Assembly: GCF_003334255.1 (NCBI RefSeq)
Contig: NZ_QOWU01000033.1
DNA length: 57,101 nucleotides
Reading direction: 5' to 3' (one strand)
Source of the DNA: Escherichia coli
Lineage (GTDB): Bacteria > Pseudomonadota > Gammaproteobacteria > Enterobacterales > Enterobacteriaceae
Position numbers: made by a program. Of this stretch, positions 56,301-57,101 are shown one piece after another; position 1 is the stretch's first letter; each line of letters opens with the position of its first letter.

Positions 56301-57101
56301 ATTAATAATGTTCATGCCCATTTTCTTCAGCTCTTCGCCGAAGTACCAGGTGAGATGACCCGGCATATAGCCTATCTCTGGCGTTTGTTTGTCTGCGGCG
56401 TCTGGGAATGCGCAAATGGAATAACCATTCAGTGGGTTATCGCCGTGGCGAAGCGCCAGAAAAGCCGCCGGGCCGTGGCAAAGGGAGATAACAAAACGGT
56501 CATTTTTGATTGCCCACTGCAAAGCAGCAGCCACGTCCTGGCTTTCTGGTAAACTAATAAGTGCGCCATGACCACCAGGAACAAAGATTGCTGCATATTC
56601 GCTGTCTGCGTTGAGGCTGACGACAACATCCGCGAGTTTTTTCGGATTGCGGAACAACGATTTATGCTGCTCAAAGAATGGCATTACTTTTTCATCTTTG
56701 TGCGGCATAGCCCAGTATTCAAACTTGGTCATCAGACCGGAAATGGTCGCCACTTCGAATTCGAAACCTGCAGCATGGAGATGATACAACGGCAGCAACG
56801 TTTCAATCGGATGGTTACCGGTCGAGAACAGTTTTCCGTTATCGGTCGGCAAATAACGTTCGTCCGCGGCGATCACCAGAATTTTATGTTTACCGCGATA
56901 CGGTTTTGGGGTAATGACTCCAACTTACTGATAGTGTTTTATGTTCAGATAATGCCCGATGACCTTGTCATGCAGCTCCACCGATTTTGAGAACGACAGT
57001 GACTTCCGTCCCAGCCTTGCCAGATCTCAGATTCAGATTATGTCGCTCAATGCGCTGAGTGTAACGCTTGCTGATAACGTGCAGCTTTCCCTTCAGGCGT
57101 G

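Follow-up and report, generated by a model that had tools for sequence, protein, structure and literature searches.

The DNA analyzed here, referred to as the window, is a 57,101-nucleotide stretch of the Escherichia coli chromosome that contains, in order, cobUST, tRNA-Asn genes, a yersiniabactin island, mtfA, zinT, msrQP, hiuH, hprRS, a remnant of hchA and, at its right-hand edge, part of an IS1 element (Table 1). The product of hchA is Hsp31, a glyoxalase III/deglycase of the DJ-1/PfpI class I glutamine amidotransferase-like type. An earlier interpretation made from the window alone (the sequence-only reading) had taken hchA to be in frame up to its stop codon, and translation of the remnant was indeed uninterrupted, running from PKPYRGKHKILVIAADERY to ...LAAYAG* over 242 codons plus the stop. 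Compared to nucleotides 124–852 of K-12 hchA, 17 of 729 bases differed (97.7% nucleotide identity), giving three amino-acid changes (A138V, G160S, and L257V). This identity, retention of the nucleophile motif LCHGP and of ...FVISLCHGPAAF..., and the position beside hprS/hprR establish the remnant as the hchA ortholog; hprS lies downstream and is convergent with it.

Homology to K-12 stops exactly at codon 42, at position 56909: where K-12 reads TTTTGG followed by ATAGTCC, the window reads TTTTGG followed by GGTAATGACTCC. The switch to IS1 had been placed about 45 codons from the expected start. The right terminal inverted repeat (IRR) of IS1 does begin at the very next base, but the loss amounts to 41 codons (123 nt), together with the promoter. 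With codons 1–41 absent, the remnant falls short of full-length HchA, a protein of 283 residues including the N-terminal segment.

Table 1. Coordinates of the features discussed. Positions are those of the window unless another locus is named.
Feature	Position	Strand	Basis or remark
hchA (Hsp31/glyoxalase III) remnant	56181–56909	minus	codons 42–283 plus stop (stop at 56181), by translation and alignment to K-12
Right-hand 192 bp of IS1, IS1F-type by sequence	56910–57101	minus (transposase gene)	continues past the window edge; 763 bp in complete genomes with an identical junction
IS1 right terminal inverted repeat (IRR), 23-bp core GGTAATGACTCCAACTTACTGAT	56910–56932	none	matches the left-end repeat
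Canonical insB'/insAB' stop codon TAA	56925–56927	minus	translation (...NIKHYQ*VGVIT, then PKPYRG...)
Site of 5-bp deletion, frameshifting insB'	between 57024 and 57025	none	TGTTG on the plus strand, CAACA on the coding strand; alignments
IS1 with the 5-bp deletion at the sucrose locus	L006, L007, and L009: 3911–4673; L008: from 3911		four genomes
REL606 IS1–hchA region	L011: 43328–44686		alignment
Simple IS1 insertion in hchA	L017 (NZ_CM194533.1): 255–1882		9-bp duplication
tRNA-Asn(GTT) genes (four)	5236–5311, 7645–7720, 9469–9544, 49016–49091		asnT/U/V/W cluster
Yersiniabactin High Pathogenicity Island	~18900–48900		annotation of 99.9%-identical genomes
Mosaic boundary	~18565–18581		border of IS3 remnant and island
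Mechanically called hprR ORF	53933–54715		260 residues
HprR as annotated	54044–54715		223 residues, by homology

The bases from the breakpoint to the edge of the window matched, at 192 of 192 positions, the opening 192 nt of the 763-bp IS1 carried by the complete genome SCZE5. The sequence-only reading had assigned the terminal 190 bp to the InsB C-terminus; this segment is the 3′ end of IS1 and of insB', with coordinates and sequence strings as given there, and only the length needed correction, to 192 nt. The IRR core agrees at 20 of 23 positions with the left-end repeat of the same element, GGTAATGCTGCCAACTTACTGAT (locus L001), and has the form of IS1-family ends (~23 bp, beginning GGTRATG...CCAACTTA). 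The family's overall organization (~768 bp, with insA and insB' expressed through a −1 frameshift at AAAAAAC) was also found, as judged on complete genomes with an identical junction, in which the element measures 763 bp (768 minus 5), the window itself showing 192 bp only. In this 763-bp element, insA is intact and the A6C site lies at position 307, and the reconstructed InsAB' matched the Pfam families DDE_Tnp_IS1, HTH_Tnp_IS1, and Zn_ribbon_InsA. Chance similarity is of no concern, as hundreds of bases matched known sequences exactly. Comparison of the distal segment with IS1 variants, which had been proposed as a check, supported the assignment to IS1 and identified the type: over 763 aligned bases, the whole SCZE5 copy showed 5 mismatches to K-12 IS1F compared to 67 to IS1A, and the element is, on sequence, an IS1F-type copy.

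IS1F is the 'type 4' IS1 of Umeda and Ohtsubo (1991), as cited in PMC12903888. The K-12 IS1F copy resembles the element in the window in having insA, the A6C frameshift site, insB', and 23-bp terminal repeats. It differs in its locus, which is fecI/yjhU rather than hchA/yedJ, and in being without the 5-bp deletion described below, and its own insB is annotated as a pseudogene.

What lies past the element was read from complete genomes in which the identical junction is present, none of which matches the window throughout. In SCZE5, whose IS1 carries the same 5-bp deletion as the window (the Δ5 allele), and in 7/2, 1532MA, L73, 2452, E2865, 300709, and AMSCJX02, whose IS1 is intact, the far IS1 end abuts a truncated yedJ, called 'HD domain-containing protein, missing N-terminus' in RefSeq, and beyond it lie dcm, vsr, and yedA. 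The first 86 codons (258 nt) of yedJ are missing, and the left (IRL) side of IS1 is joined to codon 87. Compared to K-12, 3,136 bp are absent (NC_000913.3 2,032,822–2,035,957), and the genomes are collinear on both sides of this gap, which takes in the first 258 nt of yedJ, drpB (yedR), the sRNA gene rseX, the porin locus/pseudogene yedS, and, for hchA, both the promoter and the initial 123 nt. The sequence-only reading had expected that a 9-bp target-site duplication and the missing hchA 5′ end might be found past the element. Neither was present: the 9-bp flanks of IS1 in these genomes are CGGTTTTGG and GAAGAGTTC, which differ and show no duplication of the 8–9 bp typical of the family, and truncated yedJ occupies the place of the hchA 5′ end. 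Thus, an IS1 end does truncate hchA, as had been proposed, but the gene is not simply split by the element, and the target-site duplication is missing because this IS1 is associated with a 3,136-bp deletion.

We determined the frequency of these junctions in 5,426 complete E. coli genomes. The hchA–IS1 junction was present in at least 505 genomes (~9%) and the IS1–yedJ junction in at least 452, both numbers being lower bounds because IS1-rich genomes hold up to at least 40 IS1 places each; the 53 carriers of the hchA junction (of 505) in which the yedJ junction was not found reflect either further rearrangement or undercounting in such IS1-rich genomes. A K-12 probe across the breakpoint was covered over at least 80% of its length, indicating intact hchA at that point, in 4,863 genomes, and a 399-bp K-12 probe wholly within the deleted segment was detected in 4,872 but lacking in 554. 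At most 9 genomes therefore hold the hchA 5′ segment without the intact junction. Because ~9% of complete genomes carry the truncated hchA allele and RefSeq annotates it, the allele is ordinary, a common polymorphism that is already known.

These counts bear directly on the model in which a simple IS1 insertion splits hchA, with the 5′ half of the gene and its promoter just past the element. The window, which shows 192 bp of IS1 only, is compatible with such an insertion, and simple insertion does occur at another position in hchA. It involves a 768-bp IS1 flanked by a 9-bp duplication of nucleotides 305–313, with both halves of the gene kept, in two genomes, and serves as a positive control for the model. 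At the codon 42 site, however, the construct expected from simple insertion was found by probe search in none of the 5,426 genomes, and all complete genomes examined that have the exact junction carry yedJ on the far side. Moreover, the set of genomes with the hchA 5′ segment (4,872) coincides almost completely with the set whose hchA is intact (4,863), so the 5′ end has been lost, not displaced, in the carriers. The sequence-only reading had allowed for either fate of the promoter and N-terminus; loss is what the genomes show, and displacement of the 5′ half to another site was rejected on the absence of the internal 399-bp probe from 554 genomes. We consider simple insertion at this site highly improbable.

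Taken as a whole, the results are best explained by a chromosomal deletion that is fixed in one widespread group of E. coli and marked by an IS1F-type element, an explanation in which we have high confidence. An insertion sequence that lies beside a deletion and has no target duplication can arise by adjacent deletion or by recombination between two IS copies (PMC11708052). We infer the following mechanism and order of events. An IS1 copy would first have entered the yedJ–hchA interval or its vicinity, and an IS1-associated deletion would then have taken everything from the element to a second site. The likeliest route for this second step would be an adjacent deletion, produced when the resident IS1 transposes replicatively within the same DNA molecule; it would leave a single IS1 with its IRR side on hchA codon 42, its IRL side on yedJ codon 87, and no target-site duplication.

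The other route starts from two IS1 copies in direct orientation, one at hchA nucleotides 123/124 and one in yedJ, between which RecA-dependent recombination would remove 3.1 kb and leave one hybrid IS1. The product would be the same (one IS1, no matching flanks, and both junctions at IS1 termini), recombination between IS copies is a recognized cause of absent target duplications (PMC11708052), and the carriers are often rich in IS1, with up to at least 40 places per genome. This route nevertheless requires two independent insertions of IS1F-type elements, in like orientation and within 3 kb of each other. In addition, synthetic junction probes that included the 9-bp duplication detected a single-insertion intermediate, at either the hchA or the yedJ site, in none of the 5,426 genomes, a result that is weak negative evidence in a case where the end product alone cannot separate the two routes. 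Because single-insertion intermediates are absent at both sites, we lean toward adjacent deletion and regard recombination between two copies as a distinctly less probable origin.

Adjacent deletions promoted by IS1 are classically associated with the gal region, where they were reportedly described by Reif and Saedler in 1975. Like those deletions, the one at hchA keeps one IS1 at its edge, starts exactly at the IS1 terminus, and lacks a duplication; unlike them, it is a fixed natural polymorphism inferred by comparison rather than an event watched as it happened.

Because the deletion took the 5′ parts of both genes, the hchA and yedJ remnants are promoterless, startless pseudogenes. The hchA/IS1 junction offers no start codon, and the first in-frame alternative start in the hchA remnant is a GTG at 56876 that lacks an evident ribosome-binding site. 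The TAA stop of the transposase gene is in phase with the hchA remnant and lies 5 codons upstream of codon 42, the 192-nt IS1 span being a multiple of 3; since this in-frame TAA separates the two, no transposase–hchA fusion protein would be made. A consensus scan of positions 56000–57101 for promoters and terminators returned one weak minus-strand match inside IS1 that was no better than chance, although a scan of this simple kind could miss weak read-out from IS1 into the remnant. Expression of the remnant driven by IS1 is thus unsupported by the scan. In relatives, RefSeq labels the same stretch 'glyoxalase III HchA, incomplete, missing N-terminus', and we likewise treat the remnant as a pseudogene that is presumably not expressed.

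The IS1 copy itself is altered. A frame change in InsB had been suspected from the window, and it corresponds to the loss of TGTTG relative to every intact IS1 copy compared, with the two InsB' segments of the window, the second of which ends in ...HYQ*, sitting in different frames. Through this frameshift InsAB' loses its final 34 residues and ends instead in 18 unrelated ones. The DDE_Tnp_IS1 match is cut to positions 1–98 of the 131 in the model, compared to 1–131 for intact InsAB' or the sister copy, so the full catalytic domain of an IS1 transposase is lacking, and the Zn_ribbon_InsA and HTH_Tnp_IS1 matches are complete. With the final quarter of the DDE catalytic domain lost through the 5-bp deletion, the Δ5 copy is predicted to be incapable of producing its own transposase, in agreement with the suggestion in the sequence-only reading that this IS1 may be defective. 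The element is IS1 by descent but, as judged from the domain matches, defective for transposase.

A 51-nt probe across the deletion found the Δ5 allele in 12 of 5,426 complete E. coli genomes, as a single copy in each, and 8 of the 12 matched the window at every base of hchA, through the junction, and across the deletion. RefSeq marks the transposase as 'frameshifted' in the Δ5 assemblies. The agreement of these 8 complete assemblies and the RefSeq label indicate that the frame break is not a read error. More generally, an assembly or sequencing artefact could take the form of a chimeric contig end on a repeat, or of a homopolymer or indel error behind the insB frameshift, and the window does end in a multicopy repeat, which would be a typical place for a short-read contig to break. 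The junction is the same base for base in at least 505 independent complete assemblies, however, the 5-bp deletion is identical in 12, and TGTTG is no homopolymer. We therefore give an artefact practically no credence.

The common hchA'-IS1-'yedJ allele, as in 7/2, 1532MA, L73, and E2865, has the same two junctions and the same 3.1-kb deletion as the Δ5 carriers. Over 502 bp at the junction, these genomes were 99% identical to the window, with the 5 extra IS1 bases making up most of the difference. Their IS1 is an intact 768-bp element annotated with a 'programmed frameshift' rather than as 'frameshifted', and it has T, not G, at position 559. Only in a small subset of carriers, including the source of the window, does the resident IS1 bear the 5-bp insB' deletion as well.

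The Δ5 allele occupies two unrelated chromosomal sites, in different E. coli lineages. It lies at hchA in 8 genomes, and in BEN2908, NCTC9064, GF60, and SW070917 (n = 4) it lies beside the sucrose-utilization island. The NCTC9064 and SW070917 copies were identical to the SCZE5 hchA copy at 763 of 763 positions, and the BEN2908 copy differed at 1 base. At the sucrose locus the left flank varies by genome (ykgR or a tRNA-Sec integrase), and no target duplication was present. IS1 position 559 was T in 6 of 6 intact hchA copies examined and G in every Δ5 copy compared over its full length; thus, the 5-bp deletion and 559G travel together. Because TGTTG has no repeat that would favor its recurrent loss, this linkage points to gene conversion onto the resident hchA copy or to mobilization in trans. 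The Δ5 copy keeps InsA, the AAAAAAC site, and both terminal repeats and could therefore produce InsA and serve as a substrate for the transposase of other copies. Immobile IS1 copies of K-12, including IS1F, have been shown experimentally to be moved in trans by IS1 transposase (PMC12903888). Whether the Δ5 allele represents a non-autonomous IS1 that spread in natural populations, by trans mobilization or by gene conversion overwriting a resident fixed IS1, is in our judgment evenly balanced. A search of the plasmids in PLSDB for the Δ5 allele returned only two matches of 87.5% identity, on small Klebsiella plasmids, which we rejected as instances of the allele on account of that identity. A defective IS1 allele common to two loci would offer a small natural illustration of trans mobilization or gene conversion among IS copies.

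Other IS1-associated lesions of hchA are distinct from the one in the window. E. coli B carries a 41-kb IS1-associated deletion 'between uvrY and hchA' (PMC3032704). In REL606 and BL21, as in the hchA'-IS1-'yedJ allele, the IRR end of an IS1 in the same orientation adjoins a 5′-truncated hchA, the deletion lies on the IRL side, and hprS/hprR are intact downstream. The E. coli B deletion also removes the fli flagellar cluster, dcm, and vsr, whereas dcm and vsr are kept in the hchA'-IS1-'yedJ allele. The REL606 breakpoint falls at hchA nucleotides 206/207 rather than 123/124, its element is of the IS1A type, and its far side is uvrY. Because both the breakpoint and the IS1 type differ, the E. 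coli B deletion is an independent event, and we rejected the possibility that it is an extension of the IS1 found in the window. The allele in the window, that of E. coli B, and the simple insertion at nucleotides 305–313 are three distinct alleles; IS1 has therefore struck hchA at least three separate times. A different element, IS5, lies between yedS and hchA in W3110 (PMC2072959). Our search of the literature on hchA/IS1 deletions returned no paper specifically on the hchA'-IS1-'yedJ allele; its sole finds were the deletion in E. coli B (PMC3032704) and the W3110 IS5 (PMC2072959).

The allele has little import beyond correct annotation: the source strain has hchA and yedJ as pseudogenes and lacks drpB, rseX, and yedS. 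As the same holds for ~9% of complete E. coli genomes, strains of this group should not be credited with phenotypes that depend on Hsp31 (methylglyoxal detoxification and acid or heat stress), RseX, or DrpB. The locus is also a tidy case of an IS-bounded deletion without target duplication.

Elsewhere in the window, the yersiniabactin High Pathogenicity Island contains fyuA, ybtE/T/U, irp1, irp2, and ybtA/P/Q/X/S, an assignment that rests on the annotation of 99.9%-identical genomes. The four tRNA-Asn(GTT) genes form the asnT/U/V/W cluster; one of them serves the island as its attachment site, and a frameshifted integrase adjoins the copy at 49016–49091. SCZE5 was 98.2% identical to the window over positions 1342–18581 and 99.9% identical over 18565–57101, which places a mosaic boundary at the border of an IS3 remnant and the island. 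Over its first 20 kb the window was 100% identical to 1532MA, a genome whose IS1 at hchA is intact, and not to the eight Δ5 genomes. The pattern of identities suggests recombination in the history of the region around this boundary. Finally, the mechanically called hprR ORF starts 111 nt upstream of the annotated HprR, and the longer frame is probably merely the result of an upstream in-frame ATG.
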